In this document: one piece after another, positions 1 to 42,820 of the stretch
Numbering within the stretch: the stretch's first letter is position 1
Layout of the letters: each line of letters opens with the position of its first letter
Virus record (IMG/VR): IMGVR_UViG_3300020379_000013
Coordinates: 1-45,794 of that record
Origin: a virus
Lineage: Duplodnaviria > Caudoviricetes
Length of the DNA stretch: 45,794 nt
Direction: 5' to 3' (one strand)
The notes under the pieces: model-generated
What the model was told of the DNA's origin: nothing
The model's database searches: none
Seen by the model: the letters and a program-made list of their open reading frames with translations, nothing else
Position numbers and translations under genes: made by a program

Positions 1-3000
1 GTCGAACTGTGCAACTGTAGCACCCTGTGAGTTCTGTTTTAAGCCAGGTCTAGGAACGTTAGGTGTAGCAACCTTAGCACCGTCAATCTCACAACCAGAA
101 CCACCAAGGAATGATATAAGAGATGAGTTCTGAATATATGGAGATGCTTCAATAATTGGAAGATCTAAGAATGTTTGAACAAGTGGGAATGAATACTTGC
201 CTTGATCTTGTTCTGTAATCAGAGGATCAGGATTTGTAACTGTTCCACCATATGCATTACCACTAGACAATACGTTGTCTAAGATACCCCAGTTTGTAGT
301 CAGTGCGGATACAACGTTAGCACACTCAGGTGCAGATGAATCTACCGTAATAGAACCATTTGATCTAGGTGTGATTTGTGAGAATTGACCACTCTCTAAA
401 TTATTTCTTATTGCGTCTATTGATAGTTCTTTTGCTGCAGCAAATATTGCACGAGTGTAAGTAACCTCAGTTGCAACGTGTTGAACACCACTAGCACCAG
501 AGATGTATAAGTTTGCTGCCTCAACAATTTTAGAGTTACCACCATAACGTAAGTCATACTGGAATGCTCTCGTAATCTTCATTACGTCATCAATACATTG
601 CTGATCGCCAGGTGCAACTGTTCTTGTAACTGATGCTACAGAACCTGGTGTAGTTCCGCTTCCTATTGCTGTTGTAACGATGTCAAAGAAGGTTGTAATT
701 GATGAGATAACGTTTGCACAAGAAGGGTTAGTTGCAACCGTTCTAGTGGCATGTGACATGTTATCGTTGGCAATTGCAGTATCAACGATTGTGAAGAAGT
801 CATCAATCAATCCTTGCTCTACAGTTGTTCCTTTATTATTGTTATCAAGAACCTGAGTGAATCCATGATTGCCTTCTATAGTTCCGATAGAGTCACTAAT
901 AGCAACTGTTCTAGCAAGTGTTTTTGCTATTGCAAACACTGCACGTGATTCTGTCTCTTCACCGTCTAGGAATGTAGATGATGTGTATAACGCAGCAGCA
1001 TCATAAACTTGCTCGTTACCACCATATGCTAGGTTGTATACGATAGTTCTTAGTAGATCTAATACGTCATCAATACAGTTTTGATTTCCGCCAGGCACAT
1101 TGTGTGATGGGTTATCAATGTTGTATCTTTGAACTGCCTCAAATGCAATTAGGTTTAGGTTCTTTTGTATAAGAGTTGCAGCGTCACGACGAACTGTTCC
1201 TGCACCTACATCTAAAGTTGCATTATGATAATACTGTAGTTTTGTAGCATGAGGATTTCTGTATAGAGGTAAATTTCTTCCTGCTAAAATACAAGCATCT
1301 TTCGCATATCCGAATACTTCTGCATAACGATCTCTTGTTAATGAGAAGCCAGGATCAATATAGAATTTTGCTTGATCGAATACTCTATCATTACCACCCC
1401 ATTTAAGGTTATGTGCTACACATTTTTGAATGAAGTCTCTAACGTCATCGTAGCATGCTGTGTTACCTGTAGGAATTGTGTAACCACTATTAGCAGCAAG
1501 CATTTTATTGACTGCATAATCTGCAATCATATCTGCGTTACCAAATAGTAACTCAGAAACATCACCGTATTTGTTATCTACTGGTTTGCTGTTTGGAGTT
1601 CTAAATGGTTTTTGTAAATCTGTAAACTCACCTACGGATCCACTCTGTCCATTCTGTGAGTTGTCTGGTAAATCTAGAACAAATTCTCTGTCATCATAAA
1701 TGTCCTTAATACCATAAGTTCCATTGATGTTTGCATTACCAGAGTTTGTAATAGTTACGGTTGTTAATGCTTTCTTAACTGAGTTAGTTCCTGCACTTAC
1801 AAATGCATGTGTTGAAGTGTCAGATGATACACCAACATTAACAGTAAATGTATTTGTTGTCTTTGCAGTAATCCTTAACCACTTATCAAATGCAGGGTCA
1901 CCGCCTCTAGGATATGGATGGTTTGTTGCATTACTATCTGTGGCACAAGTCATTACGATTGCACCCGCATCAAATTTAATTAAATCACCAACACTAAATC
2001 CATGACCATTGACAGTTACTACAAAGTTACCGTTGCTAGGTGTGTAAGATGCGTTAGTAGGAGTATGCTGACTGAAGTTAGGATATAAGTTATGTCCTTT
2101 CTGAACACGAACTGTTAATGCATCACCACTTGCAGACCAAGAAGTAAGACCTCTTGTTACTGTGTCTGCGGTTTGTCCAAAGTTTGTTCCACCAATAGTA
2201 AGTGCAGAACTACGAGTAGCGGATGATTCATAATAATATTTGACATATGCTGTTGCCTCCTCTGCAATAAATTCTTGGTTGTTTCTGATATTCTCAGCAC
2301 CATCTCTGAATCTATCACTTTGATTGATAGGAGTAAATCCGTAAGGAGAGTTACGTAGAGATGCTAGAACATAGTTGTTAGAACCAACAACAGACTGGTC
2401 ACCAGTTGGGTTGAGACTAGCACTAATTTGTGATAGGTTTGCTCTTACAACAAACTGTAGTGAGAAACCATCAGCACGTTCTATACGATGTGTAATATAT
2501 TTTCTACCGTTAAGATCTTCTAAGTTATCAAGAATAGAAACGCCAGTTCCAGATGATGATGTAACATCACTAGCAGTTTCAATATTTGCTTGCTTTAATA
2601 CAAATGTAACTGTAGTGTTAGAACTATTATAACGACCATAACCTAGACCTAAATCAGAGTTTGATGGAAGTGTAGGAGTTCCAGCTCCTAGATCAAATTG
2701 TCCAATATGATATGTCTTACTAAATCTTGCATCAGCGTTAGGGAAGTTAAATGTAATACCAGCTTGACCTAATGATATTAGATTAGCAAATAAAGCACTT
2801 GTTAATGTATTGTCTACACCTGTGACTGTAACAGTAATTAAACCACCACTAATAGTGTAACTTGTGTTTGGTGATGCACCAAATCCTAATGCAGTATTCT
2901 GGAAACCATAGATGTTAACTTCTTGTCCAACTTCATAATCGTGGAAGTCAGATGATGCAGCAGAAGTCGCTAGATTGAATATAGGACCGTTGTAGGTTGA

Positions 3001-5130: not shown

Positions 5131-5145
5131 TTCGTTCCTATAAGG

Positions 5146-5679
5146 TTATGATACGACTGTTAATTCTAAGTTTCCTATCCACAAAACAGTGGATGAGGTT
5201 GTCACACTTGAGACTTGGAATGTAAAGAATGGTGCTGCCCCAATTTGTGTGGCAAATGGCACTACATTCCATGTTTCCTGACCTGGTGGATTGTTTCTAA
5301 CGATGATCTTCCTTTCAGAAGCAACGGTAGGAATACCTCCAGCTGTCGTAGTAATTACAAGGTCAAATTTTGCTGCATAAACATATATATTTGTCGTCGT
5401 CTCTTGTCCAAAAACTGTAGCACTAGCAAAGGCAACAGAGTCGTTTGCTAATGGTGGTGTGTTTCCTGCAAGAGGTGTGGTTCCATCTAATGATAGTTGC
5501 TGTGTGTTATTAGCAGCATCTGTTTGTCTTTTAAGAATGAATATATCTTTGTTTGCATCAGTAAAGTGATTGCTCACCATGTGCATTGCTGATATGTTTT
5601 TCAGAGCTTTAGAAGTGTCTAATACTTCAGTAGCATCTACTGCGTATCCTCCTATAGATGAAAAATTCTTTACGGGCAT
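5146..5679 (-). CDS. Putative virion structural protein (177 aa)
   Basis: Beta-rich ORF between two giant structural genes, preceded by a TATAAATA late promoter. Confidence 0.75.
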   Translation of the reverse strand: MPVKNFSSIGGYAVDATEVLDTSKALKNISAMHMVSNHFTDANKDIFILKRQTDAANNTQQLSLDGTTPLAGNTPPLANDSVAFASATVFGQETTTNIYVYAAKFDLVITTTAGGIPTVASERKIIVRNNPPGQETWNVVPFATQIGAAPFFTFQVSSVTTSSTVLWIGNLELTVVS

Positions 5680-5700
5680 TGTCTTAGATTACCTAGAGGT

Positions 5701-5708
5701 TATTTATA
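5701..5708 (-). promoter_or_regulatory. T4-type (gp55 sigma) late promoter TATAAATA
   Basis: Exact TATAAATA on the minus strand about 22 nt upstream of the 177-aa gene, overlapping the TAA stop of the upstream gene. Confidence 0.8.
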
Positions 5709-8700
5709 CCTTCACCTTTGTAGTTGTGAACCTACCAGTGAAGTTTGATGATGATGTCGCAGCACTAGATTTGTTTAGTGAGATAGTAACGTTACTACCA
5801 ACAACACTAATACTTGCATCCACCAAATTATTGTCAGAAGTTACTGAGTTAGTAACTGTTGCATGTGCAGTTGTCCCTGCTGCAGCACAGACGACTGTAA
5901 CCTCAAGCATGTGGACTTTACCGTCATCACTCTCAATAGTTACAAGTGTTTTTGCACCTTTAAATGCAGTCTTATCAAATGCAACTATACTTGCAGATGA
6001 TGGGAATGATGATAATTGACCACCTTCCACACGACAGTCATCTAATTCCACAAATGTTGCTGTAGAATCAAATATAGTCAAGTAGTCTGTTGTTCCTCCG
6101 TTCCAACCACGGTTGATTTTAAATCCTGCTTCAGAACCATTTGCATCAAGGTCAAGGAATGGTTTTGAATCTAATTGTGTAACATAGTCTTGTTGCAAGA
6201 CATCCATACGAGCAAGAGCAGGAGTTGTGCTACTCAATGATGCAACCTTGAATGAAACGTCATTTGCAGGAGATGTTCCACCGAGATCACCACCGTTAAT
6301 GATTATTGTCTCATCAACTTCGTAGTTTGTGCCTCCGTTCGCAATAGAAATACTAGACACATTGCCAGATCCATCTATGACAACATCAAATGTTGCTCCA
6401 GTTCCTTCAATTGTTGATGTAGATGATGTTCCACTATAAGTTTGTGATGCTGTATATGCTCCACTACTTGATGTGATAGTTCCAATACTTGCAATTGTTC
6501 CTCTAACACCTACATTTCTTAGTCTAAGACCGCCTGTAATTTCTAAATCTTTTTGTGATCTAACTTTTGCAATAGATGCATCAGATGCTTTAAAGTCAAC
6601 AGTATCTTGTCCAATGATTGTTCCATTGATATTCAATACCCCGTTAACATCAATTATTCTAGTTGTCTTAAGAGTAAATCTGTCTTTGTCTATTGATAAG
6701 GAATTAAATCCTGCATTATAGAATTCAAATGTATCTTCATCAGCTGCAGGAGCAGACTCAGTTAATATGTAAGTATCTTGGTCAACGTCACGAACACCAC
6801 CAAGAGAAACAAAGTCATTTCCGTTGAAACCTTCAAACTGCAACTGTGTAGAGTTGAATCTGATAGCACCTGTAACACGGTCTAATACATTAGGACGTTG
6901 GTTTGTAGTTCCAGATGGAATTACAAGAGATCCAGTAGAGTCAACTAAGACACTAGATCCTGTTGATGGTTTCAATACTACACCTTGACCATCAATATCT
7001 GATATGGTGATTGATCTACCACTACCACCACCTACTGCAGCAACTGTGACAGTATCACCGACTGCGTAGTTTTGACCTTTATCAACAATAGTTGCAGCAG
7101 AGAAGTCTCCTCCAGATACTGTAATTGTTAATGTAAGTCCAGTTCCACCACCAGTTGATGATGTTGCTGTTGCTGTATAAGTTCCGTTTGTATATCCTGA
7201 TCCACTTCCTGTGATTGTTACTGCAACAACTTCACCAAATGCTCTAACTGCACCTGTGCTATTGTTTTGTATTACATTTTGTCTAATACGTAATTTACCC
7301 GCATCTAAGTTTCCACTGAATAATGCAGTTCCTGTAGCAGTGTCAACTGATACAACATTAGATGTGCCATCAGTAATGTTAAATGCTTTATCAGTTCCAC
7401 CTTTAAATACAAAATCTCCACCACCCTTAGTTTCAAAGTTTAGTGGGATATCAATATTTGATCCTAGAGATTTTAATGTATTTGTATTGTCTAAAGATAA
7501 TTGATTTGTTGCAGGACCTATTACTACACTATTTGCTGATGGGTCAACCTTAAAGAATGGGTCTGTATTTCCTACAGTGCCATCTACTTGTAATGTTGGT
7601 GTATCAAATCCATTTGCATCTAATCTAAATTTCTCAACTCCTGCTACTGATATTCCGATGGAGTCAGCTCCTTGTCTGAATAAACCAGTTTGAGTTGAGT
7701 TATCAAATGCTAATGTAGGTGCAGCTGCAGTTCCATCTGCAAGTTTTGCAGTTGTCTGAACTAATGTTGTTGCTCCTACAGTTGTAAGACCACCATTGAA
7801 TGTTGCTAATCCAGTAAATCCAGATGTAGATTGAGCAGAAAATACTCCAGTAAATGTTGCAACGGTTCCTTGAACACCAGTAAATGTTGCGTTACCAGAT
7901 GATGCTATTGTATAAGAAGCAGCACCGATACCACCATCAGGATTTAATATTAATTGACTTTGACCAGCTTGACCTAATGTTAGAATACCTTCTTGGTTCA
8001 TTTCTAACTGTTTGACGCTAGAAATAGATCCAATCGTTACGGTTAAACCAGATCCTTGTGCTACACCCGCACCACCAACATCACCTAATATTAGTGTGTC
8101 AGATGCCTCAAAAGCAGATCCTCCAGATGTTACAGTAACTGCTGTGCAGAAACCTACCTTAGTGATTGTGTATTGGAAACCAGATCCACCTCCACCACCA
8201 ACTGTTGAATCATCAACACTAAGAACATCACCGACATTATATCCAGATCCTGTTAATGATATGTTATTTACCGCAGTGATACCAGTGGTATTTGCATTAA
8301 GAGTGTATTGGAATCCAGATCCACCACTACTTACTCCAAGATCATCTGCGTCTATTAATAATACATCACCTAGTGCATAGTTTGTTCCTTGTGTCACGAC
8401 TGTGACTGAAGTTACTGAACCACCAGAGATGACTATGGTTCCAGTCATCTGATCACCCGCATCACCTAATGCACCAGCTGCAATGGTAATTGTAGAGTCC
8501 TCGGACATCTGTATACCATGAACAGAGCAAGTATATGTTGTTGATGTTGAGTTTGATGATGCAGATCCAACAACTACCTCGAAGTAAGATCCTGCAGTTC
8601 CTGCTGTTCTATATTGTCTTGTTGCTATACCAACAACAGGTGTAATTACTAGTGGGTGGTTAGCGTTTGAAGCATCACTAGTATCAAAACGATATGTATT

Positions 8701-11700
8701 GTTATCTAATAATGTGAATGATGGTGCTTCTTCTGCAGATCCACTTGTGTCTATTACATATCTGTTAACGCCACCTTGTAAAGTATCTAATACTGCTGAC
8801 GCACCAGCTCCATTTGTTACAGTATCTGTTTGAGCATCTTGGAATGTTCCAGATACGCCACTAAGATATAAGAAACTATTGTCACTTGCAACGTATGTTA
8901 TGGTTCCAGTTGCACCAGAAACAGAACCAGTTACAGTGTTTCCTACAGCAAATGTTCCAGTAACACTAGAGATTGATAATCTATCTCTCTGAACAACTGT
9001 TACTGTGTAAGTTGCAGTTGGTGTGTTTCTAAAACTGAGTGTGTAAGTTCCGTTTGTATATCCAGATCCACCGCTTGTTATAGTTCCAGTAAAACCAGGA
9101 ATTACGAAATCAGCAGTAGCAGTAACTGATGGACTTCCTCCAGTAAATGCAATGTTGTTATATGTCCCTGCTGTATATCCTGATCCAGAGGCAGTTATGT
9201 TTCCAGTAAGTGATTGGATGTCAGCTTGTAATGTTCCACCGATTCCACCACCACCTGTAAATGTAAGAGTTGGTGCAGATGTATATCCTAATCCAACGTC
9301 TGTAACAGAAAGAGATGATATTCTACCTTCTTGCTCATTTAAGACTGCAACAAATTGTGCATCTTGTGTAGCATCTCCTGTTGATGGAACGACTGATGGT
9401 AAGTTTCTATATCCTAAACCTTGACCAGTTAAGGTTACTGTGTCTATTGAGAATCCAATAGTTGCATTAGCAGCAGCATTTTGTCCTGTGGTATCTCCCT
9501 GCACATTTGTTAATGTTACACTTGGGTTAGATGTGTATTCTCCACCGCCACCAACTACAATTGAATCTACAGAGAATGATAAGTCAGTTGCTACGACACA
9601 ACCAGTTCCTGCTCCTGAGTCTGTAATAGTGATAATTGGAGAGTTTTGATAACCAGATCCTGCATCAGTGATTGTAAATCCATCAACAACACCACCTGTT
9701 TGTGAGACGTTGACTGTTGCAGTTCTACCTTGGAAGAACATTTGTCCAGATCCAACGGCAGATAATCCCTGAGCAGTTCCGTTATTAGCATTCGATAAAC
9801 TTGTTGCAACTTTTAGCAAATCTTTGTCTACACGAATTGCATAGTATGTTGTTGCAGTTGTAAGACCAGTAGGTGCGACTGCAGCTGCATCTAACGTTGT
9901 AGCGTCAAATGTCATCTCCATACCAGTTTCAAAACTATGGTTTGGAATGTAGATTGTATTATTTGCTGTAGATACTACGGGTTGAGAAACGCTATTTGCA
10001 TCTGTGTAAGATGCATCTGCTTGGAACTGGTTTTGTTGAGGAGCAGCTACAGTTCCTGTAGGTCCTGCATATCCTGATCCACCCGCTTGTATAGTAATTG
10101 ATTGTAGAACACCCGCTTGTCCTAGTGTTGCGGTTGCTGTTCCTGCAGAAACCTCACCACCACCAGTAAATGATACAGTAGGTGCAATTGTATATAAATT
10201 TCCTCTATTTGATAATGTAATTTCTTTCAATGCACCTGTTGTTGTCAGTGTGCAAGTTGCTGTAGCAATTTGGAATGGGTTGGTTGTTACCTCTACTGGT
10301 TGTGCACCACCTGTATATCCAGATCCTTCTCCTGTTAAGTTTACAGTTCCTAAACCGTTCTTAAGAACAACGAATGATCTAGTAGAGAAGTTAGCAGCTT
10401 CTGATGATCCAAATACTGTAGATCCACCAAATCCTGCAATTTTTAGAGCACCTTGAACATTACTACCAAATGATATTGATTTGTTAACGTCAAAGTAAAC
10501 TGCCTCTTTAACGATTGTTTCAGCGTTAACAACAAAGTCTTCTTCACCAGAGGGGTCAACGATTACCTGACCTGTAGTAGATGTAATACTGTTACCCGCA
10601 ATTCTTAAATTACCAGTCTCAATAAACGCAGGGAATATGTTAGTTGTTCCAGTTGAGTCACTTAATGTGATGTTTGCAGCAGACTGAGCTGTTGATGTAG
10701 CAGCAAATGATACATTACCTGTCTCTTGGTCTACCGAGAATGCATCTCCAACACGGAAGTCACCGTCTTGGTCTGTTGATGAATATAATACTCTACCACT
10801 ATTAAGTTCTTCTACCTCATTATTCTGAATTGCAAGTGATGGGTCATTTGTAAAGTCTTGTCCAGAACCAACATAACCAAAGTTATGTGCTGTCAATATA
10901 AGTTTTACACCAGAACCATCCGCTTGAACACCCTTCTGTCCGTATACACATGCAGATGCAACTGAACGCATCTCAGCACCGAACTGAGAATAGTCAGCAG
11001 TGATAACAGATGTAGCAGTATCACCACCATTAGATCTAATATCAGATGTTCCACCAGAGACGTCTGTAAAGGTCGTAGAGGCGTCTGTTCCATTAGCATG
11101 GAGTAATAGCACTGTATTGATATCTGAACCATATTCGGTTGTAGTCGGAGTAAATCCTGCAGTAAAACGAGCAGATGCTTTACTTACTCTTACTTCATCA
11201 ATATGTCCGTTAAATGCTTGTGTAGGAGATGCTTGATAATCAGAACCTATAATTAATGGTTTTGTTGATCCGTAGTCATTAGCATCTGTATATGTGCCTA
11301 ACTCAGTTCCATCTAAAAATAGTTTTGTTGTGCCACCACTTCTTGCTACTGCAACATGATAGAATGTGTTTGTTGCTAATGTTCCACCATTAATTTGTGA
11401 TGTATTTCCTACTGCATAATGTAATGTAGTTCCATCAAGATACATTGTAGGTGCTGTATCTGTAGCAGAATTATCTCTAAGGTCAAATATTCTTTGTGTT
11501 CCTGTTACACTGCCAGGTCTTATGAATGCTTCTAGGCAGAAGTTTGCAGAACCAAATCCAAAGTCTTCATCAGTAGCAACTTTTACGTTATCTTCCGTTC
11601 CGTCTAATAATATAGATGCTGTTCCAAATTTCTTTTGTGCTGTATCTAACTGTGAGTCACCAAATCTACTTGTTACTTTAGCTGATTTGTTTACAGTTAC

Positions 11701-12951: not shown

Positions 12952-13096
12952 CTAGAGCATTCTCAGATTGTTGGTCAGTATTCATACTATTTAACTGAGT
13001 TTGTAAATCTTGGATTTGTGCCTCCATCATTACATTTATCAGTGTCAATTCAGAAATTTTCTTTTGTAGTATAGAAATAACAATTTTTGCGTCCAT
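12890..13096 (-). CDS. Small coiled-coil protein (68 aa), possible fibre chaperone
   Basis: Heptad pattern LQKKISELTLINVMMEAQIQDLQTQL; lies between two fibre genes; its C-terminus overlaps the start of the 2415-aa gene. Confidence 0.6.
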   Translation of the reverse strand: MDAKIVISILQKKISELTLINVMMEAQIQDLQTQLNSMNTDQQSENALDGNENQAKEIDDSSSSPDDF

Positions 13097-13110
13097 AATT
13101 CAAATAAGTT

Positions 13111-15356: not shown

Positions 15357-15378
15357 TCTTTAAAGAATTCCCATATAA

Positions 15379-23788: not shown

Positions 23789-23809
23789 CGCAATATAAGC
23801 TTTATTGGT

Positions 23810-23817
23810 TATTTATA
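23810..23817 (-). promoter_or_regulatory. T4-type late promoter TATAAATA
   Basis: Exact match upstream of gp8, overlapping the gp7 stop codon. Confidence 0.8.
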
Positions 23818-26800
23818 ATGATCTTAGACGAACTTCTGGGAGGAGACTAACGTTTCCACTTGTTGTTCGTGAGAATGGGAATTCAACTGTAAATGTTGTT
23901 GCTCCTGTTACGGTAACAATATATGTTCCGTCAAATCCAGTGCCACTAGTAAATTCTAGATAGAATCTTTGACCAGTAACTAAATTATGATTACTAGAGG
24001 TAGTGACTGTGCATGAAAGTCCGCTAGAAGTATAAGTTCCTGTAAGGACTGGATGCTCTGCAGCAGTTGTTCCTTCGGCACCTCTACCACCTGTTGCAAC
24101 TGTTAGTGTATTACCACTTACATCCTTAGAACCATACAATATTCTTTCACATGTCCATACTGGTGGAGTAACAGATGTATTGTAGAATGGTATCAATACT
24201 TCACCTTCGTCAGGGAAACCATTCTTCTCAGAAGAATTAAAGTATACATTCTTCAAGTTAATAGTAGTTCCCGCTTGTGATAATGTAGATGATAGGTAAG
24301 ATGTTCCTAATGACAATGAATTAGATATGATTCTATTTCTTTGTTTTCTTTCTAGATCTAGAGGATGAACAACTAATACAGTAGGAGCACTAGTATATCC
24401 TGCACCACCCTTTAGATTTATGACTGATAAAACTCTACCACTTCCAGTCTCAATTGTAGTCTCAGCAGACGCACCTTCTCCACCACCACCTTGGAATATT
24501 AGAATAGGTGGAACCTCATAGTTAGAACCCTGATTAGTAATATTGACTTGTGTTACCTGTCCTCCAGTTACAGTTGCAGAAAACTCAGCAACAGTTGGTT
24601 TCAAACCTGTATATTCGTAACTATCAATAGTAGTCGAACTTGAGACAGCTGCGACAAGACGATCAGAACCTTCACTAGAAATCTTAACTCTGTCTTCTGG
24701 ATCAATAGCGTTGTATGTGTTACTTACTAGAATATCTGCTGCACTACCTGTATAGATGAATAGGATACAATCAGATCCTGCTCTAGGTGCCTCACTAAAC
24801 TCTATGATAGATCCTGTTAGGTTATATGCTACGCCAGGTTCCTGATATACACCATTGAGGAATATAATCAAGTTATTTTGTGCTTGAACTGCAGCGTTGT
24901 CACTTTCTAGAGAGAATGGTTCAGTATTCTCTTTCATAGTAAATGTTTTCTTCTTACTATCAAAGAATGGTTCGATAGGATCTAATTGAGTCAATTTACC
25001 AAAGTAGAATCCAAAGAAGTCCATACCAGCTAGAGGTGGTTCTGTAAATGTAAGTGTGCTACCTGTATATGTGTATGCATCAGTTGTTCCTTTGATTTGT
25101 AATGTGCTATTCAAGAATATCAAGAAGTTATCACTTGGTGGTAATATCTGTGTAGATCCACCAGACAATGTAGTAAATACTGCATCTTGTCCATCAAAGG
25201 TTACGCTACCGACATCAACTTGGAAGAATGGTTGTGTTGATGCTGTTCTAGTAATACCGTTCAAGTTTCCACTACCACCCGCTGTAGTTCCTACTGCCTG
25301 AGTTACAATCGCCCACAATGTAGATATTGTTGATGCAGTATCAACACAGCATGCCTCGGAGTATGATGTGCTACCAGAATCATTACTAATAGTATTATCT
25401 TTTATTTGTGTGCCAACAGTATCACCATTTGTAGTAACTGTTAGGTTACGCATGACCTGACGACAAATATCTCTAGCATGATTGAATACTTCTACAGACT
25501 CATCTTCTTCTCCACCTAGATGAACTGTTCCAACATAGAAGTTAGCAGCATCGTATGTTGCATCGTTTCCACCAAACTCTACGTTGTCTGCTACTGCATC
25601 TATTAGTAAGTTTGTATCACGAACACATTTGGTTTTGTAGACAGCAGAGAAAGATGGGTTTGCTGCTTGCATTCTACCGTATGCAGTTGTAGCAATAAAG
25701 TTTTGATTAAGTCTAAGTAAGTTTCCTGCGTCTGCAACTTTGCTGTATTTGTAAACACCGTAACTGACAACTGCCCTTGTGACAGCTGTAGAAGTGGCAC
25801 TCACAAATGTATGAGTTGATGTATCAGATGATACACCTACGTTGACAGTAAATGTATTTGCAGTTACAGCGTCAATAGTATGCCATGCACCTTCTGATGG
25901 ATCTCCAACTCTAGGATATGTGTGCTGTGTTTGGTTATTATCTAAACCACATGTAAATGTTAGTGAATTATTAGCAAAGAATATTCTGTCACCTTTAATT
26001 AATGGATGACCATTCAATGTAAGAACCATCTCACCTGTAGATGGTGTGTAAGCAATATCTGTTGGTTGGAACTGGTATGCTGAGAGTCCTACCCATGTAT
26101 GTGCGTCAGTGTTTGTAGGTGCTGTTCCATTCAATGCGTTAACAGTAATTGTTGTGGTTGCCACTGCTTCAACAGGAACATCTTTCATCTTGCCTTGAGT
26201 TCCAATAGGATCTGTAGGACGTGGATATGATGCAGTTCCACCGCCACCATAGTTACAACTGAACTGTAATGACTCGTTAGCAATCCTTACTGTAGATACT
26301 GCCTTCTTAACGCTGTTTGTTACCGCAGATACGAATGTATGTGGATCAGTGTTTGTAGAAGGAATAGTATCAAGAACTTGAACTGTAAATGTATTTGTAG
26401 TGCAATCAAATGCTTCTAACCATCTGTCTGATGCATAATCTGTAGAACGAGGATAATCGTCATTACCACCACCAGAATATGTGCAACTAAATTTAATCGC
26501 ACCATCTGCAAACTTAACAAAGTCTCCATTTACAAATCCATGATCGTTAATAGTTACCACCATCAGACCTGTATTAGGATCGTATGTCGCACCTGTAGGT
26601 GTATGTGTGCTAGGTGCTGATAAACCATGTCCAGAACCTATGGTCAATACCATTTCACCAGATGCAGGAGCATATGTTGCGGTTGATGGAATGAAGTGTT
26701 TGACTAATTGTTCTCCAACACGAGGATCAGATATTGCTAATACATCATTGTCTGTATAACCATTACCAGCTGCATTGAGAACGACACCACTTACTTTACC

Positions 26801-29800
26801 ACCAGTAACTGTAATATCAGCAGTTGCACCAACACCAGAACCTAATCTATTCTTAAGTGGCACTGCAGTGTATACGCCATCGCTATACCCACTACCACCT
26901 GTGATTGCACCAAATGTTTTTATCTCATCTCCAATCTGATCTAATACAAATGAACTAGTGTAATCAGAACGATCAAAATACATTGCGAGGACTTTACTGC
27001 CTGATAATGGTGGAGTAACAAATGTTACAACGTTATTTGCAAATGTGTAAGTAGCAGGGTTTGCAATCAATCCATTTATCGCTAATAATAATTGTGATGT
27101 TGCTGCAGTCTTACCGATCTTAGTTCCTATGTCAATACCATCAACTCTTACTGCAAATGAGTCATTGATACCGTCTATAAAGCATCTTAGTGTATGTCCT
27201 ACACCTGATCCTTGTGATGTTAGATCTATTGAGGTTGCACCGTCTGTTAATGCTAATTCTATTGTATTTGCATCTACAACTTTAACAAAATACTTACTAG
27301 CATTTGTAAGTCCACCAATAGGTGTGCCAGCTCTGTTGTTTGGATAATTCCCTGCATTGATAGTAGGTAGTGCAGCAGTAGGATCTGCGATAGCACCTGT
27401 AACTATTCCTGCAAAGATTGTGATAGCACTCTTGACATCAGCACAACCACCAGAATCATTAGTAATACTTAGATCTGTTTGTGGAACTATGTCTGTGTAT
27501 GTTCCTACTGGAAGATCGTTAGTTACTGCTAATAAACATAAGTCTCTTGCTTTATTAAATGCATATATTGTTTCTGCCTCTTCACCAGCTACGTGTTGAA
27601 TACCTGTCCCGTCAGTATATTGTTGTGCAGCATCCACACTAAAGTAGTTACCACCATACTTAAGATCATTTGTCCATGCTGCGATTACAAGTCTAGTATC
27701 TCTAGCACATTTTGCTTGATCGTATGTTAGTGATGGATATAGAGCATTTAAGAAACCAATTGTCTCTTCTACAATATAATCAATGTTATTGACGATTAAA
27801 TCTCTAGCATCTAAGAATCTATCTCCACCAGAGAAGTAAGTTACTTGTTGTCCTGTTAGAAGACCATGATTAGTAATTGTAATTCTATCATTGATACTAT
27901 CTACAATAGTAGTGCTAGATCCGTCAAATGTTAATGTCCTGTCGCTAATATCATCAATCTTATATGAGATACAAGATAAGATCTTCTGAACGTCTAATAA
28001 CTGTTTTCCGTAGATAGAAACCTCTGTAGGAACTAATGCAGTGTAATCTGGTTTGGATAATGCAAAGTTACTAATCTTAGATAATTTACCAGTATTCTTA
28101 GCAGATGGTTTTGGTGTTATGAAGGTTGTTCCATTAAATGTTGTGCCAAGAGTATTTGTATTTGGTGACCACCAATCAAATTGACTACTTGGGTTGAGAT
28201 TAGAAGTTGATCTTGGTCTAAACTCTTTCTTGACACTTGATAGTAATACTTGTGTTCCAACTACCTTAAATCCTGCAGGGTGTGCTGCAAACTTAAGTGG
28301 ATTCTTCCAACTATTAATATTAATTGAAGATGATATGTTATATGAGAATTCTTGGAATCTATTACTGTCATATACACGTTGTTCGTTAAGATCTAAGAAT
28401 CCAGTTGTCTTCTCCCAGTTTGCAGATGATGTGCTAATTGGTGATACGATAAATTCAGCATCTGCTCTATCAAATGCATGTATCTGACCAAACGCACCAG
28501 ACTCTTCACCAAATACAGGTTCGCCAACTACAAAGTCACCTTCTATAAGTTCAACACTAACAACACGACCTGATGCATCCCAATTCTTAATAAATCCAAA
28601 TGCAGTAAATGATGTATTAGATGCACCCTGATATATTCTCTCTCCAATAGAGAAAGTAGCTGGTTTCATGTATGCAATGATATTGTCACCTAAATCTGTA
28701 GTTTCAAGAAGGAAATAAGTTTGACCTGTAAGTGGATCGCCTAAAGGTGGACTTGTAAATGAAATTGTAGTCTCAGTGTTTGCATTAGCAAGAGATGTTG
28801 CTAATTTGATCTGATTAGTTGCTAATCCATTTGCAGTAGTTGCTGCTACAGCAAAATATGTTGTTCCTGCTACTAATGGTTCTGGAAGAGTTCCAGATGA
28901 CTCTACTAGAGTAACTTTGGTTCCTGATGGAATCTTAGCGTTATATGGGAAGTTTATTGTGCTACTTGAGTTAAGTGCTACAAATGTATGACTGACTTTT
29001 GCCTTAACTGTAGGTGCAGATGTAAATCCTCTACCAGAATTGTTAACCTCTACTGCCTGTATAATCTCGTTCTGTATTATTGGTTCTAACTCAAATAATG
29101 AACCTTGACCACCATCAAGTATGATTTCTGGTTGTGATACAAAATTAGCACCACCATTTACAACTTCAAGATAATCAATAACTTGAGTTCTGACTAATTG
29201 TAAATTATAGGTTGTATTTAACTTTGGTTTTAGTGTTCTATCGTGACTGTAGTTAAATGTAATGTTCTCACCACCAATCTTCAATATCTCACCCATATCT
29301 GATGACTTAAGAAGTATTGATGCACCAGTTCCAGATTTCTGCTCAATATTGATTATTGGAGGACTTTGATATTGTTGTCCACCAGCTTCAATATTAATAA
29401 GAGATACACCTTGATTTGATATCAATGCATTTAATGAAGAGTTGATTCCATTACCACCTTGTGCACTGATAGTAGGTGCAGATAGATAACCAGATCCAGA
29501 GTTCGTTACAGTTATAGTGTCTATTGCTGCATCTAGTAATGTCTTAGTTTGGACGACATCATTGAATGTCATTGTAACTGGTTCTATGACTAAATCATCA
29601 GCACCATCACTTCCACCTAAGTCTGCTCCAGATATTGTAATATCGTCTGCTATGTTATATGCAGTTCCACCATTTGTTACAGTTACTGTCTCAACAGTTC
29701 CTGCACCGTTCGTGGCCACCGTAAATTCAGCACCAGTCGCACTGGTTCCTGCTATAGACTTTTGTTGTATACCTGTGTATGTTTGACTTGCTCCATAGTT

Positions 29801-32800
29801 CGTTGCAGATTGAGTCTTAATTGAGACAGTTGCGATTATACCGTAATATGGATCGTCAAATAATACTGTTGGTGCATTTCTATAATTTGTTCCTGCCTGT
29901 GTAACTGTTACTGATGATACTTGACCCGCACCAGAAACCGCTGCAGCAACTGTAGATTGCGTTCCTGATATTGTATTAATAATTGCTACTGAGTTACCAC
30001 CTGTATAAACTCTTGAGAGAATCTTAAACTCCTGTGTGCCAGTTCCAGAATTGGTTACAGTGATCGCAGTGCCTACTTCTGCTAGCTGTGGTGTCTCTGC
30101 TAACTTCACACGATCTGAATCACCTATGTTGATAATGTAGTATGTTTGTCCTACTGTAAGATTACTAACTGGGTTAGTCTGTGCTGAGACATATTTGACT
30201 GGATCTCCAGTTTTTGCATCATGTGCTCCAAAGAAGAATTGATCTGCATATCCTACTGCGTCAATCTGTGATGGATTGATACTATATGATTTACCCGCAT
30301 TGAACATGATATATCCTTTCTGTCCTGCACCAACTCTTGTATTACGTAGAGGTTGTATTCTTAATACTGATGTAATTGGGTTCCATGATATAACCTTTCC
30401 TCTAGCAGTGCTATTATCTTGAACTTCTTTTCCAATAATGATTTCATCTTTAATAAAGTTGCCTAATATATTTTCTAGCGTCAAATCTACAAAATCAGGC
30501 ATTGTTACAACACAAGTAGGCAAATCAGCTTGATTATAACCAGATCCGTTATTTGATATTGATACATTTGATAATCCACCAGAAATAGTCGCTACAGCAG
30601 TAGCACCTGACCCAGATCTAGAAGAACCACTTAATTTAGGTAATGATTGATAATTTCTACCACTATCTCCAATTGTTATAGTTGCAACACCGCCTGTTGG
30701 GTATATTGAACTTGTATCATATGATACACCTACTCCATAACCAGCTTCGGGTGCAACTGCCATACTGTAGGAGAACTCAGTGGTGCCACTTACTGCGATA
30801 ACTGTCTGATCGCCTAATATCGGGTCATTGATTATTGAGAAATACCTACTATTAGAAACATCACTCTTAATAGAGATTACGTTACCCATATAAGCATGGT
30901 TTTGACAAACGTAGTGTAAATTGTTTGGAGAATCTACTGTAGGGGTAATTTCTACACTTCTAGAAACTGCAGTTCCGAAGTTAGCGTTATAATCGTCCCA
31001 AGAAACTACATCACCGTTAATTCTATAAACAACTCCTTTCTCATATCTGTTTGTGCCACCATATGCATCCTCACTCTCTGAGAAGTAGATAGCATGTGTA
31101 GTATTTGATGAATCGTTCTGTAAGAATGTATATGTTACACCACGAGACATAGTAAGTGATGGTGACTGAGCAAGACTTCCATATTTGTCACCAGTCATCC
31201 AATATCCTTTACCAGATCCTTGACCAAACAGAGGATGATCAGCTGTTTTGTTCTGAACTACAACTGTAAAGGTATTTGGTGCTGTAATTGTATGTTTAAT
31301 GTCATGGTAATAGAAAATGCCAGGCAAATCTACTATTTTGACTGTTAGAGAGTTCTGTTCGTTGGTGATTGGATCTCTAGACTCTTCAATAATGTTTTTG
31401 TAAGTAAAGATGTCTGTATTTGCAGGATCAAGTGTAAATGATAGAACTTGTCCACTATTACTTGCATCAGATGTATCAAAGATGTATGAGTGTCCATTTA
31501 TAACTGATAAGTTTGGTTCTTTGACGTAAATGTCTGCAGGATTACCACTATTACCTGTTGTAACATTTGCTGCACTTGTTGCTGCAAAGTTTCTCTTGAC
31601 TGTAAACTTCCTAGCAGTCTCTGATCTCACTACAACATAGTTTGTCTTATTGTAAGACGTAGGTGAGACACCTGAGATATTAACAATGTCTCCTGCACTA
31701 AGTTGATGTGAGTTAATACCACTAACGTGACACTGAACTTCTCGTTGCACTTGAGTTAGTGTGATAGTAAACCCAGATCCACCACCATTACCAATATTAA
31801 TATCATCTGCAGATATTGTATCACCGATATCATAACCATATCCAAATTCTGTAATTGTAACTGCTTGAACAGCACCACTACCAACAACTATAGTTGCCTT
31901 TCCTAATAATCCATCACCATTGGTTGTTATAGGGACATTGATGTATGTTCCGTTAGTATAACCAGAACCACCAGTAATAGATGACCAACCATCTTGGAAT
32001 AAGTTACCATCTGTTCTTACTCTAAGGTAAGTCCAATCTAAAACTCCGTCTCCTGCAGTTCCAGTAGTATGTGTAGGTGAAGATGCTCCAGAAGTTCCAG
32101 TGCTAGCTGCAACGTATACTCTATTTGCTACATGAACTAAATCTCCTTCAACATATGCAGTAGTTCCCGCCCAAGCATCAAGTAATTTCATACTTTGTAA
32201 ATCAAAGTATTTGAAATGATAATTGCTATTAATAACCTTACTTGTTAATGTTCTTGTAGCAGCGTTGTCAGTTACCTTTATATCGACTCTATCACCAACT
32301 TGTAGTAGATGACTATTTGCAGTGGTTACTATAGCAACAAACTGATCATTGTAAGTTCCAACAAAACGTGCTACTGAATTAACAGTAGTTCCTTCAATTT
32401 GAGATACGATTGCACTTACACCATCTCCACCAGTTCCAGTATTATCAAACTGTAACCTATCGTTGACCTTATATTCTTTACCACCACCTTCTACAAGATA
32501 TTGATTTACACCAGCTGATGAAAACTTATTAGTAGAAGATACAATTAGAGAATCCGCAGATCCACCTCTAACGAAAGGATAGTAACTAAAGTATCCGATA
32601 CCATCTTCAATATATGTTAATGTCTCACCAGTCTCCATGACTATGAGAGTAGTGCTATCTTCCATTGCAAGGAAGAAGTCAATCTTATCGTCTAATTGCT
32701 TTCTCTTTGCTGTAATATTATCAACACCTACAAATGGTGCTCTGTAACGTATTGCGTCTTCATTAAAGTTTCTCTGCAATCCATTACCATTCCAGTTTAC

Positions 32801-35800
32801 TTCATCCGCTTCACCGTAAAACTCTGATCCTACAAAGTATGGGAATGCGGGATAACCAGTGGTTCCTGTAATAGTTGTAAAGTAAGCATACACTCCATTT
32901 GGATATTCTGGAGTTACGCAGTATCTGCCATTGTAACGGTCTAAATCACCAAGACCTTCCACATATTCATAATCCTCAAGATATGTGCCTAGAGGGTCAC
33001 TGAGACCGCTTAGAATAGACGCTCTTGATGTCTTTACTCTGTAACTACTTCTAATACGTTTATATGAGTTGAAAGGTGCGGTATTCTCAGGATCTTCATA
33101 TCCGTAAGGTCCGTAGATAGGATGTCCGTCATACGCCCAACCAATAATAGGTGAGTGCACTGTAGGAGGTAATTCCTGCAGAGCTCCGTTATTATCTAAA
33201 CCAATACTATCCTTAAGTAAGAATCTTAGTTGCTTAGGATTATAGAGGTAACCATATTCGCCATTGAAGATTAGATAGTTCTCACCTTGGAATGTAGCAC
33301 CACCGTATACGTCTGTAGTCTTGGGTGATACAAATGTATTACTGCCTAGTTCATTACCTGTTGCTGCTTCATTGACAGATAGTTCTGTAAGTCTAGTCTG
33401 GAAACGTGCACCTGAGCCAGGATATACAATATCAATCCTAGTAGAACCCGCTGTATAACCAACACCCTTACTTGATACAGTAATACCAGTAACAATATTA
33501 GAAGATAGATCTACAGTAGCAAATGCAGTCGCACCAACTCCGTCTCCTGTAATAATAACGTCTGGAGGACCGAAGTATCCACTACCACCGAATGTAACAA
33601 TTATACTCTCTATCTTACCGTTTAGTATTGATGGATAAGCAACAGCTCCGCTTCCACTTATCAGATTGATAGTTGGTTCGTATGTATACTGCGATCCTGC
33701 ATTATCAATAGTAATAGTATCTACAGGACCTCGACAAACTGCACTAGCAGTTGCACCACTTCCGCCTCCTCCTGATATGGATACCGTAGGAACGCTCGTA
33801 TATCCCGCACCACCATTCACAATAGTAATACCAGTTACGGAACCTTCCGTAATTTGTGCGGTAGCAAACGCTTGGTTTCCGCTAGTTGCACCACCACCGA
33901 CGATTGATACGATAGGTTGCGTAGTATATCCGCTTCCTCCACTCGTTACGTTGATAGAGGTTACGGAACCTGTAATAATTACGGATGCTTCTGCACTTGC
34001 TCCCTCATACTCCCAATCAATAGTTCCTACTGTTACTACTCCTAATGTGTGGATAGGATAGACTGTAGGTGATGATTTGCCAGGATTGAGTGATCTGTAT
34101 CTGTTTCCGTTATATGTTACTCTAAGACCAGATGCATACGTTGTATCTAACTTATACTCAGGTTCAAATTCTACAGTAGGTGGGTTTGTGATGTCATATC
34201 CAGATCCACCAATTATTTTCTCAATACTTTTTACACCACCAAACTTTTTCGTATTATTAGACTTAAATGAGAATAGTGGGACACCATTTGCACCAATACC
34301 AACTTGACCTACAGGAGTTGATGTTTTTTGTGATTTTATGCTTGGTTTAAGAGGAATACGTTTTAGATATCTCTGATTGCCAGGATCTAGGTCATTTGCA
34401 GCAAAAGGTCCTATCTTATGTGTAGGAATTCCTGTGCTTGCTACTATTGCATTAGAATCTGACTGATATGTGTTTTGAACGTCACCTGTAGTATCTTTGA
34501 TCGCTATATTGATAGATGTGTCATCACTCTTACCAAATGCAAATTCTCTAGCAATAAAGAACTCAATACCAGATATACCTTGTGCAGGAGATGATGAGAA
34601 GATAAACTCGAATGTAAAGTCGTCAACAATACCTACAACAGTGTGACTATTGTTGTAAATGTCTTCTGGAGCATTTAAGATTCTAACAGAGTCATCTCTG
34701 ACCAATCTATGCTTCTCTTTCGTCACTACCGTGCATCTTACCGATCCATTCGCTAATGGCGTTCCTAGGGTCGCTGAGACGCCTCTGAGAGCACGTCTTA
34801 CGTTGTATACAAAACTATCCCATATAGGATCAATGCTATCAAAGCCAGGTGCAAGGGGAGTAGTGACTTTTGAGTCTGGTAAGTAGTATCTACCACCAGT
34901 ATTCAGTATTACACCTCTAGTGCCACCAAATATCTTTAATTGTATCTCAGAACTGTCTACATTGGAAGAACCGTAGATTTTAAACGCAGCAATAACGTCT
35001 TGACCCGCATCATGTGCAATATTGACTGTATTGTCTCTAGCACGACTACATCCAAGGAATTGTGTAACTGTTTTATCGGTATAACTGATTATTTCGTCTT
35101 TTATCCTAAACTTACCATTTGTTTCAGGCCACCCTAGTGTAGAATCGACTGTAACAGTAGTATCTGTTAAATTAGCACCTAAATCCTCCGCTAACATCGT
35201 TTTATACGGAGTTACGAAGGTTCCTACTGAATTATTGGTATCTACGTCAATTTCATAGATTGTTCCAGTAGAAGTAAACACTTCTACGACGCCTTTTACG
35301 TAAATTCTTGCAAATCCGATATTTGGGTCGTTTGGATCTGCATCTTGATATAATACTTCGCCTACAAGTTCTATTGGGTTGCCTTTTAACGGAACTGCAC
35401 GAATAATTTCTCTAGAAGTGTAAAATGCATCACTAGGTTTGAATATTCTCTCTCTAGGGTATGATACTTCTGAGTCTACGCCAAATAATGCTCTTAATAC
35501 AAACTGGAATGATCTACTTGTTCCTTTTGACGAGTAGAAGTCCTTAATACGTTTTATTACAGTGCTTTCTGTTACGTTAGGTGCAAAATTCTTTGGAAAT
35601 GTGTTTAGGAACTGTTCCTTAAACTTCCCAAGCATGTAAATTGGGAAAATGTTGTTTAAGTTGACAACTTCTGTGCCTTGAGTGTGTGTTGCAGCTGTTG
35701 TAAACTCAAATCTGTAGTCTGCCTTCAATCCAACTGCCTTTACAGCGTTAAATCCACGCCCACAGTCTTGAAATAGTGTTGAACCCTTGCTTTGGTAGTA

Positions 35801-36184
35801 AATTATCTCATCATCTATCAATAAAAGTCCTTCTGACGGAAAATCACGTGTAGATTCAACGTCAATCGTTGTAGAATCTGCAGAAGTTGCAGAAATCAAC
35901 TTTGTAGTCGTAACTAGATCGCCATAATTGTCAATATTATAATAATCTGACCAGTTTTGAATTATATCAATGCAATATCCTTTTAATTCTTGCGATTTAT
36001 AGTATTCCTTGACAAAATCAATGAACGTAGGATACTCTTCCCGTATAAACGACGGAAATTGTCCTCTTATATGTGTTGATATTTTGGATCTAGATTCGGG
36101 ACTGACTTCCGATGGCACAGGCGGTTGTGTAACCGTTGTGGTAGGTGTCGTCCACGACCCAACTCTCCAAGAACTATTTGTCAT
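23813..36184 (-). CDS. gp7: Baseplate wedge initiator gp7-like, massively expanded (4123 aa) with inserted accessory modules
   Basis: Q.P.FIREEYP.F..F.KEYY N-terminus; IK.IKDFY.SKGT..SF.F..RALF; QEFSY.I.S......WK......HPAGFK; position between gp6 and gp8. Confidence 0.85.
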   Translation of the reverse strand: MTNSSWRVGSWTTPTTTVTQPPVPSEVSPESRSKISTHIRGQFPSFIREEYPTFIDFVKEYYKSQELKGYCIDIIQNWSDYYNIDNYGDLVTTTKLISATSADSTTIDVESTRDFPSEGLLLIDDEIIYYQSKGSTLFQDCGRGFNAVKAVGLKADYRFEFTTAATHTQGTEVVNLNNIFPIYMLGKFKEQFLNTFPKNFAPNVTESTVIKRIKDFYSSKGTSRSFQFVLRALFGVDSEVSYPRERIFKPSDAFYTSREIIRAVPLKGNPIELVGEVLYQDADPNDPNIGFARIYVKGVVEVFTSTGTIYEIDVDTNNSVGTFVTPYKTMLAEDLGANLTDTTVTVDSTLGWPETNGKFRIKDEIISYTDKTVTQFLGCSRARDNTVNIAHDAGQDVIAAFKIYGSSNVDSSEIQLKIFGGTRGVILNTGGRYYLPDSKVTTPLAPGFDSIDPIWDSFVYNVRRALRGVSATLGTPLANGSVRCTVVTKEKHRLVRDDSVRILNAPEDIYNNSHTVVGIVDDFTFEFIFSSSPAQGISGIEFFIAREFAFGKSDDTSINIAIKDTTGDVQNTYQSDSNAIVASTGIPTHKIGPFAANDLDPGNQRYLKRIPLKPSIKSQKTSTPVGQVGIGANGVPLFSFKSNNTKKFGGVKSIEKIIGGSGYDITNPPTVEFEPEYKLDTTYASGLRVTYNGNRYRSLNPGKSSPTVYPIHTLGVVTVGTIDWEYEGASAEASVIITGSVTSINVTSGGSGYTTQPIVSIVGGGATSGNQAFATAQITEGSVTGITIVNGGAGYTSVPTVSISGGGGSGATASAVCRGPVDTITIDNAGSQYTYEPTINLISGSGAVAYPSILNGKIESIIVTFGGSGYFGPPDVIITGDGVGATAFATVDLSSNIVTGITVSSKGVGYTAGSTRIDIVYPGSGARFQTRLTELSVNEAATGNELGSNTFVSPKTTDVYGGATFQGENYLIFNGEYGYLYNPKQLRFLLKDSIGLDNNGALQELPPTVHSPIIGWAYDGHPIYGPYGYEDPENTAPFNSYKRIRSSYRVKTSRASILSGLSDPLGTYLEDYEYVEGLGDLDRYNGRYCVTPEYPNGVYAYFTTITGTTGYPAFPYFVGSEFYGEADEVNWNGNGLQRNFNEDAIRYRAPFVGVDNITAKRKQLDDKIDFFLAMEDSTTLIVMETGETLTYIEDGIGYFSYYPFVRGGSADSLIVSSTNKFSSAGVNQYLVEGGGKEYKVNDRLQFDNTGTGGDGVSAIVSQIEGTTVNSVARFVGTYNDQFVAIVTTANSHLLQVGDRVDIKVTDNAATRTLTSKVINSNYHFKYFDLQSMKLLDAWAGTTAYVEGDLVHVANRVYVAASTGTSGASSPTHTTGTAGDGVLDWTYLRVRTDGNLFQDGWSSITGGSGYTNGTYINVPITTNGDGLLGKATIVVGSGAVQAVTITEFGYGYDIGDTISADDINIGNGGGSGFTITLTQVQREVQCHVSGINSHQLSAGDIVNISGVSPTSYNKTNYVVVRSETARKFTVKRNFAATSAANVTTGNSGNPADIYVKEPNLSVINGHSYIFDTSDASNSGQVLSFTLDPANTDIFTYKNIIEESRDPITNEQNSLTVKIVDLPGIFYYHDIKHTITAPNTFTVVVQNKTADHPLFGQGSGKGYWMTGDKYGSLAQSPSLTMSRGVTYTFLQNDSSNTTHAIYFSESEDAYGGTNRYEKGVVYRINGDVVSWDDYNANFGTAVSRSVEITPTVDSPNNLHYVCQNHAYMGNVISIKSDVSNSRYFSIINDPILGDQTVIAVSGTTEFSYSMAVAPEAGYGVGVSYDTSSIYPTGGVATITIGDSGRNYQSLPKLSGSSRSGSGATAVATISGGLSNVSISNNGSGYNQADLPTCVVTMPDFVDLTLENILGNFIKDEIIIGKEVQDNSTARGKVISWNPITSVLRIQPLRNTRVGAGQKGYIMFNAGKSYSINPSQIDAVGYADQFFFGAHDAKTGDPVKYVSAQTNPVSNLTVGQTYYIINIGDSDRVKLAETPQLAEVGTAITVTNSGTGTQEFKILSRVYTGGNSVAIINTISGTQSTVAAAVSGAGQVSSVTVTQAGTNYRNAPTVLFDDPYYGIIATVSIKTQSATNYGASQTYTGIQQKSIAGTSATGAEFTVATNGAGTVETVTVTNGGTAYNIADDITISGADLGGSDGADDLVIEPVTMTFNDVVQTKTLLDAAIDTITVTNSGSGYLSAPTISAQGGNGINSSLNALISNQGVSLINIEAGGQQYQSPPIINIEQKSGTGASILLKSSDMGEILKIGGENITFNYSHDRTLKPKLNTTYNLQLVRTQVIDYLEVVNGGANFVSQPEIILDGGQGSLFELEPIIQNEIIQAVEVNNSGRGFTSAPTVKAKVSHTFVALNSSSTINFPYNAKIPSGTKVTLVESSGTLPEPLVAGTTYFAVAATTANGLATNQIKLATSLANANTETTISFTSPPLGDPLTGQTYFLLETTDLGDNIIAYMKPATFSIGERIYQGASNTSFTAFGFIKNWDASGRVVSVELIEGDFVVGEPVFGEESGAFGQIHAFDRADAEFIVSPISTSSANWEKTTGFLDLNEQRVYDSNRFQEFSYNISSSININSWKNPLKFAAHPAGFKVVGTQVLLSSVKKEFRPRSTSNLNPSSQFDWWSPNTNTLGTTFNGTTFITPKPSAKNTGKLSKISNFALSKPDYTALVPTEVSIYGKQLLDVQKILSCISYKIDDISDRTLTFDGSSTTIVDSINDRITITNHGLLTGQQVTYFSGGDRFLDARDLIVNNIDYIVEETIGFLNALYPSLTYDQAKCARDTRLVIAAWTNDLKYGGNYFSVDAAQQYTDGTGIQHVAGEEAETIYAFNKARDLCLLAVTNDLPVGTYTDIVPQTDLSITNDSGGCADVKSAITIFAGIVTGAIADPTAALPTINAGNYPNNRAGTPIGGLTNASKYFVKVVDANTIELALTDGATSIDLTSQGSGVGHTLRCFIDGINDSFAVRVDGIDIGTKIGKTAATSQLLLAINGLIANPATYTFANNVVTFVTPPLSGSKVLAMYFDRSDYTSSFVLDQIGDEIKTFGAITGGSGYSDGVYTAVPLKNRLGSGVGATADITVTGGKVSGVVLNAAGNGYTDNDVLAISDPRVGEQLVKHFIPSTATYAPASGEMVLTIGSGHGLSAPSTHTPTGATYDPNTGLMVVTINDHGFVNGDFVKFADGAIKFSCTYSGGGNDDYPRSTDYASDRWLEAFDCTTNTFTVQVLDTIPSTNTDPHTFVSAVTNSVKKAVSTVRIANESLQFSCNYGGGGTASYPRPTDPIGTQGKMKDVPVEAVATTTITVNALNGTAPTNTDAHTWVGLSAYQFQPTDIAYTPSTGEMVLTLNGHPLIKGDRIFFANNSLTFTCGLDNNQTQHTYPRVGDPSEGAWHTIDAVTANTFTVNVGVSSDTSTHTFVSATSTAVTRAVVSYGVYKYSKVADAGNLLRLNQNFIATTAYGRMQAANPSFSAVYKTKCVRDTNLLIDAVADNVEFGGNDATYDAANFYVGTVHLGGEEDESVEVFNHARDICRQVMRNLTVTTNGDTVGTQIKDNTISNDSGSTSYSEACCVDTASTISTLWAIVTQAVGTTAGGSGNLNGITRTASTQPFFQVDVGSVTFDGQDAVFTTLSGGSTQILPPSDNFLIFLNSTLQIKGTTDAYTYTGSTLTFTEPPLAGMDFFGFYFGKLTQLDPIEPFFDSKKKTFTMKENTEPFSLESDNAAVQAQNNLIIFLNGVYQEPGVAYNLTGSIIEFSEAPRAGSDCILFIYTGSAADILVSNTYNAIDPEDRVKISSEGSDRLVAAVSSSTTIDSYEYTGLKPTVAEFSATVTGGQVTQVNITNQGSNYEVPPILIFQGGGGEGASAETTIETGSGRVLSVINLKGGAGYTSAPTVLVVHPLDLERKQRNRIISNSLSLGTSYLSSTLSQAGTTINLKNVYFNSSEKNGFPDEGEVLIPFYNTSVTPPVWTCERILYGSKDVSGNTLTVATGGRGAEGTTAAEHPVLTGTYTSSGLSCTVTTSSNHNLVTGQRFYLEFTSGTGFDGTYIVTVTGATTFTVEFPFSRTTSGNVSLLPEVRLRSL

Positions 36185-42794: not shown

Positions 42795-42820
42795 AGAACT
42801 CGTAGTGGTTTGTTTCATGT

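Follow-up and report, generated by a model that had tools for sequence, protein, structure and literature searches.

Phycobiliprotein-type modules in baseplate and fibre-like proteins of T4-like marine phages as candidate bilin carriers

What role do phage-made bilins and the phage lyase CpeT play, notably in Prochlorococcus, where standard phycobilisomes are lacking, and in phages whose hosts are not photosynthetic? And why do certain cyanomyoviruses require light for adsorption even under a block of host photosynthesis? Both questions, which are old ones, can be put to the test in cultured phages through a set of helical modules encoded in a 45,794-nucleotide stretch of viral DNA (Duplodnaviria; Caudoviricetes; positions 1 to 45,794 of IMG/VR record IMGVR_UViG_3300020379_000013), here called the window. 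Judged from its gene order (gp25-gp6-gp7-gp8-VrlC-like-small genes-2415-aa protein-fibre-like ORF1), which is that of Prochlorococcus phage P-HM2, and from the 89% identity of one of its modules (module D) to the P-HM2 counterpart, the window represents the baseplate region of a closely related phage. The original prediction had proposed that bilin-type and blue-copper-type modules are displayed together on three virion proteins as a light- and redox-sensing device. In the present analysis the bilin-type modules stand, the copper-type modules prove to be a separate matter, and a connection with cpeT emerges.

An iterated profile search found five helical modules in the window, the number originally claimed, three of them in ORF1 and two in gp7 (table 1). 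All five retain a Cys-x-(R/D)-Asp motif (CxRD in both gp7 copies, CxDD in the three ORF1 copies), against 0.34 motifs expected and with at least five in none of 2000 shuffles. At the level of sequence and predicted fold, the modules are shown to be distant phycobiliprotein-family domains, and the earlier bilin-type reading is borne out by both the fold and the attachment residues. Module B scores above the Pfam PF00502 cut-off (23.1 versus 22.2 bits) and profile A2 matches phycoerythrin alpha with an E value of 6.2e-6; a single module gave no match among PDB sequences, so that profiles were required. The predicted structure has a globin-type helical core whose nearest relatives are phycobiliproteins, with 11-19% structural identity in the top rows. 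The helix-E attachment Cys, aligned to the phycobiliprotein site, is present in 109 of 111 aligned modules, as is the Asp at position i+3. Arg completes the motif in two of the five window modules; among cyanophage-type modules it does so in 33 of 56, and among those of the jumbo type in 283 of 292.

The family is large, with 1,647 clusters at 50% identity matched by the module profile. The best 150 matches are fibre-like giants with up to approximately 34 module copies each; in these proteins the exact CxRD is found in 1439 of 1557 highly diverged copies, in which most other positions vary, and a second Cys in 134 of 919 copies. Searched against sequenced phage records, module D gave 353 matches, all of which bear the name Synechococcus, Prochlorococcus or Cyanophage, with a marine virus as one further match. 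From the light-harvesting phycobiliproteins (PF00502; phycoerythrin, phycocyanin alpha/beta, allophycocyanin and ApcE) the phage copies differ in that they lie, in tandem or nested, within tail proteins of 1,700-6,400 residues, in that the Arg is often replaced in cyanophage copies, and in that they lack the N-terminal helix hairpin of alpha-beta dimer and ring assembly, the modules starting at approximately residue 30-35 of the subunit and the alignments to solved chains at residue 30-50. In comparison with bilin photoreceptors (phytochrome, cyanobacteriochrome and the phycoerythrocyanin-alpha type of switch), Pfam detected neither GAF/PAS nor output domains in these proteins. A further related group is that of the bilin biosynthesis-associated globins BBAG-1/3: according to the available text of PMC10151467, CXRD is the bilin attachment motif of both phycobiliproteins and BBAG-1/3, and the latter are globins outside phycobilisomes, associated with heme oxygenase and bilin reductase genes, that bind bilins without a lyase. 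Compared by description only, they differ from the phage modules in being bacterial globins encoded beside pre-PcyA genes, and that text mentions no virion proteins.

The module-bearing open reading frames are predicted to encode virion proteins on the basis of their PHROG and Pfam matches and of synteny with P-HM2. The earlier claim that modules are spread over three such proteins holds for two as far as the bilin type is concerned, the third having a copper-type motif only. In ORF1 the modules appear to be nested within positions 241-2319 of the window, C containing A and A containing B, and S-PM2 has the same arrangement, its three bodies being preceded by three separate N-terminal pieces, which suggests that the module has inserted repeatedly into loops of its own kind. 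A literature search, mostly at the level of abstracts and excluding supplements, found no report of phycobiliprotein-type domains in phage tail proteins, and to our knowledge a pigmented virion would be the first of its kind.

The window contains no bilin gene, as stated originally, and a link with phage bilin genes had therefore been offered as speculation; across genomes it was seen for cpeT and not for the reductases. In a panel of 22 cyanophage myoviruses (19 named records plus G024-G026), which is not random, nine genomes having been chosen for a reductase and two for the module, cpeT was found in 11 of 13 module-bearing and in none of nine module-free genomes (Fisher p 2e-4, kinship ignored). 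All eleven genomes with several modules carry it, namely P-HM2, S-PM2, P-SSM4, P-RSM4, P-SSM7, P-RSM6, S-SCSM1, S-SSM4 (a match obtained solely with the P-HM2 protein, E 1e-4), G024, G025 and G026. One module and no cpeT were found in S-SKS1 and S-BM3, and neither in P-SSM2, S-SSM7, S-PRM1, S-8S55, S-TIM5, Bellamy, Sf-FS3, S-SM2 and S-CRM01, for P-SSM2 also by unfiltered local searches over the whole record. On a portal-protein tree of 24 rows (S-TIM5 omitted, three non-cyanophages added) three changes of the joint module/cpeT state are required, each of them imposed by branches with good support. The strongest single case is that of S-SCSM1, where module and cpeT are present together in a phage that falls inside the clade of P-SSM2, S-SM2 and S-SSM7. 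In P-HM2 and P-SSM7, cpeT is located among baseplate and fibre genes. The CpeT of P-HM1 reportedly binds phycoerythrobilin (PEB), its natural acceptor not having been established.

T-type lyases act at the site equivalent to Cys-153 of phycocyanin beta (PMC10452541). Where the last helix begins, a position that agrees with the structure model, 42 of 56 cyanophage-type modules have a second Cys and none of 292 jumbo-phage modules does; searches of the near-complete jumbo genomes gave no cpeT. From this comparison of sequences, the split in the second Cys would be a second line pointing toward CpeT.

The longest module arrays are those of T4-like jumbo phages, three of which have adjacent heme oxygenase and reductase genes: G015 (complete, 7 modules), G017 (92% complete, 18 modules) and G007, the reductase of G015 being PcyX-like (E 1.7e-46 to 5owg). 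In these jumbo phages psbA was found in none of five genomes and hli in none of four. Their ClpX proteins, taken as a guide to the host, are 48-55% identical to those of many phyla, with no cyanobacterial title among the 80 listed (one of 64 parts scanned). Cassettes of hemO-pcyA/X are reported in PMC11480375 from phages whose proposed hosts are non-photosynthetic bacteria. Thus, the module is not confined to phages with photosynthesis genes, and its Cys is best conserved in jumbo phages, the opposite of decay. The original prediction would have been embarrassed by modules equally common in phages of non-phototrophs with the Cys unconserved; what was found are modules abundant in jumbo phages free of psbA and hli, with the Cys conserved. 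Two further observations concern single genomes. In G058, a phage with eight module matches, the pcyX-like match at positions 42781-43521 of G058:C1 is interrupted by two stops, a TGA and a TAG, which may reflect a pseudogene, a frameshift or recoding, and G015 encodes two DUF1800/DUF1501 pairs, an Acb3-like anti-CBASS gene, ClpP/ClpX/ClpS-like genes, SOD, a ferritin-like protein and UvdE.

By the published phenotypes, adsorption is light-dependent for P-HM2 and S-PM2, whereas P-SSM2 adsorbs in the dark. Module matches number six in P-HM2, 13 in S-PM2 and zero in P-SSM2, so that module presence fits the phenotypes, in three lineages only; G024, the sister of P-HM2 on the portal tree, has modules as well. 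A cultured set is thereby ready, with P-HM2 and S-PM2 as positives and P-SSM2 as the negative.

The reading that we favour, and to which we give not quite even weight, is that the modules carry covalent bilins in the finished particle, with the phage CpeT as predicted loader. Its parts are to be judged separately. A bilin covalently bound on the particle seems somewhat more probable than its absence; that CpeT acts on the module and loads a second site, as the gene distribution and the second Cys suggest, is a tentative proposal; that the pigment gates adsorption is unlikely as matters stand, and is the least certain step. Late in infection, PEB or phycocyanobilin (PCB) would come from the host, or from phage ho1, pebS or pcyA where present, and would be joined to the helix-E Cys by self-ligation or by a host lyase. 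CpeT would attach bilin to the second Cys, where the last helix begins; in phycocyanin beta the same position is the target of T-type lyases. In cyanomyoviruses the pigment may finally tune host attachment to light, fibres or baseplate being kept unready in the dark. In its boldest form, which we consider doubtful, the proposal would make photoreceptors of T4-like cyanophage particles, CpeT loading bilins on gp7 and fibre domains and absorbed light unlocking adsorption, while hemO-pcyX jumbo phages would make pigmented fibres for hosts free of phycobilisomes. If true, a photoreceptor particle would explain both the carriage of cpeT by cyanomyoviruses and the light-only attachment of P-HM2 and S-PM2. 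A self-loading monomeric bilin domain could also serve as a fluorescent tag. The phage CpeT, PebS, PcyA and HemO-PcyX genes would supply the bilin and the ligase that the module needs; in the available portions of PMC2984593, PMC10452541 and PMC11480375 they are assigned to host light harvesting, or their purpose is left open, and no virion acceptor is named.

A number of observations weigh against covalent bilins loaded by CpeT. Because kin share labels, and only approximately three independent changes are observed, the Fisher p overstates the cpeT association. The second Cys is aligned to the phycoerythrin beta site at approximately 1 bit only, and the lone modules of S-SKS1 and S-BM3 retain both Cys residues without a phage cpeT, although a host lyase could serve them. 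The bilin reductases (pebS/pcyA) are not significantly associated with the module (9 of 13 versus 5 of 9, p 0.66, in a panel enriched for carriers and with six negatives defined by absence from tblastn lists). P-SSM2 has pebS, and the Pelagibacter phage Mosig has heme oxygenase and pcyX, both without the module; therefore, phage bilin synthesis has other uses too. The module was found in only five of 27 partial pcyX contigs, which are 12-88% complete and weakly informative, and no heme oxygenase or reductase was detected in G002 (93% complete, 21 modules). Three of the five window modules, being CxDD, miss the Arg. As to light, P-SSM2 adsorption is nonetheless enhanced by light (PMC6628666), an effect that, in a phage without modules, needs another cause; BBAG holoproteins are described as photoinactive or photoinert and weakly fluorescent (PMC10151467); and with their 20-34 copies the arrays resemble bulk pigment more than a switch. 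In Mosig (locus 2349-5252) heme oxygenase and pcyX lead straight into neck genes, which possibly reflects another structural acceptor or mere late-operon placement.

Several of these points are what would be expected if the modules held no pigment and served as structural spacers or for adhesion, having arisen from a bilin-binding globin, with the Cys and Asp retained for their part in folding, in disulfides between chains or in binding some other small ligand. This explanation is unlikely. It accounts for modules inserted among many interchangeable fibre domains and nested in each other, for G002, for the lack of a reductase association and for the CxDD/CxQD variants of cyanophages, in which the Arg is dropped. 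However, it does not predict an exact CxRD kept in so large a share of copies in which most other positions are variable, nor co-occurrence with a bilin lyase gene, which is not expected of an apo-domain. The modules of the jumbo arrays have one Cys each, hence no partner within the module, and the idea that the Cys is kept for a disulfide inside the module was rejected as unlikely.

A second alternative overlaps the favoured reading up to the last step: bilins would be present on the particle, not as sensors, but as passive light screens or antioxidants for tail machinery in sunlit water. The arrays of up to approximately 34 copies per protein, the modules in phages without photosynthesis genes, the photoinert holoproteins of BBAG and the co-occurrence of UvdE, SOD and ferritin-like proteins in G015 are all consistent with it. 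Nonetheless, we regard it as improbable. The modules would sit on baseplate and fibres, far from the head DNA, and module presence fits the dark-adsorption phenotypes in the three lineages with data. Bilins absorbing visible light are, moreover, poor screens against UV.

The copper-type (cupredoxin-like) modules have a distribution of their own. Two His...Cys-x2-His-xn-Met sets are present in the window against 0.006 expected by chance, one in gp7 and one in the open reading frame at 5704..12951, so that both of the motifs claimed originally were recovered, and gp7 does hold both module types (two bilin-type modules and one copper-type set). In 33 aligned rows the His, Cys and His ligands are invariant and the Met is present in 90% or more, although these rows were selected by the C-terminal motif and only the first His is an independent check; the full His/Cys/His/Met pattern is found in 151 of 247 profile-found domains. 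Matches of profile A3 to the PDB are weak (best E 0.003), and 17 of 22 are plastocyanin, amicyanin, azurin, pseudoazurin or copper nitrite reductase; PF25489 (At5g54830-like domain) was matched in seven of the 33 members. The modules thus resemble type-1 blue copper proteins in the order His...Cys-x2-His-x2/3-Met and in the mostly-beta model, and differ from them in being embedded in tail proteins, in the weakness of the matches and in a copper site that is putative.

The module was found in 171 phage records, including four Methylophilales phages, one Pelagibacter phage and small cyanophages, so that phages of non-phototrophs are among its carriers. Bilin-type modules occur in only one of 120 copper-module proteins and copper-type modules in seven of 150 bilin-array proteins; Melnitz, Mosig, P-SSM2 (four copper-type, zero bilin-type modules) and S-TIM5 have the copper type without the bilin type, and S-PM2, with its 13 bilin-type matches, has one partial copper-type match at E 5e-4. 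The copper-type module is thus shown to be distributed independently of the bilin type, and the joint device first proposed is not supported. Co-display in gp7, where the two types are approximately 1,000 residues apart, is best understood as the presence in one giant scaffold of two mobile domains that are each widespread, the copper-type domains being a separate mobile decoration of marine phage tails that the bilin scheme does not need. A joint sensor, in which for instance an excited bilin would pass an electron to type-1 copper and so trigger fibre or baseplate, is highly improbable on this distribution, even though gp7 and its close relatives hold both types, all four ligands are conserved in the aligned set and 14 of 17 tested phage genomes have a copper-type match.

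In gp7, residues 975-1106 (window 32867-33262) form a YHYH domain (PF14240, E 7e-28), rich in histidine and possibly a metal site. PF14240 is also present in most of the 120 listed copper-module proteins, a far tighter pairing than that of copper-type with bilin-type modules. A weak partial second match to the copper profile precedes the intact module of gp7 (residues 1553-1588, window ~31421-31528) and is perhaps a decayed copy.

Table 1. Features of the window, with positions on the 45,794-nucleotide stretch.
Feature	Position	Strand	Residues	Basis
ORF1, predicted fibre-like virion protein, three apparently nested phycobiliprotein-type modules	1..5130	-		PHROG 5342 tail fiber; Pfam PF00502; P-HM2_096 counterpart
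Module C body, CIDD, Cys1512 at 595-597, second Cys1603 at 322-324	241..618	-	1504-1641	profile match
Separate last helix, probably of module A, Cys1471	619..735		1466-1504	sequence
Module B, CIDD, Cys1352 at 1075-1077	727..1191	-	1314-1468	Pfam and profile match
Module A, CYDD, Cys1226 at 1453-1455	1204..1575	-	1186-1304	profile match
Module C, first two helices, ~530 residues away from the remainder	2215..2319	-	938-970	profile positions 1-33 match
2415-aa baseplate-associated protein, Laminin_G_3 domain, without bilin-type module	5704..12951	-		Pfam/PHROG and module profile search
Copper-type (cupredoxin-like) module, H1432/C1475/H1478/M1482 (x3 before Met)	8482..8790	-		55 bits to profile A3
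gp8 baseplate wedge	22274..23788	-		Pfam/PHROG
gp7-like baseplate wedge initiator, 4123 aa, both module types and YHYH domain	23813..36184	-		Pfam/PHROG; between gp6 and gp8 as in P-HM2
Module E (gp7), CVRD, Cys3520 at 25625-25627, also Cys3612-3613	25280..25747	-	3482-3650	profile match
Module D (gp7), CARD, Cys2826 at 27707-27709, second Cys2914 at 27443-27445	27365..27829	-	2788-2950	profile match
gp7 copper-type (cupredoxin-like) module, H1697/C1760/H1763/M1766 (x2 before Met)	30860..31222	-		profile; mostly-beta model pLDDT 88.8
gp6 and gp25 baseplate wedge genes	36191..38430	-		Pfam/PHROG

ORF1 (1710 aa) is truncated by the end of the contig; its P-HM2 counterpart, P-HM2_096, covers positions 78395-89428. 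Directly upstream of gp25 lie a PAAR-like gene (38630-38920) and a probable 4'-phosphopantetheinyl transferase gene (39821-40312), so named from their position and the P-HM2 annotation, and in P-HM2 an annotated acyl carrier protein gene stands two genes ahead of cpeT.
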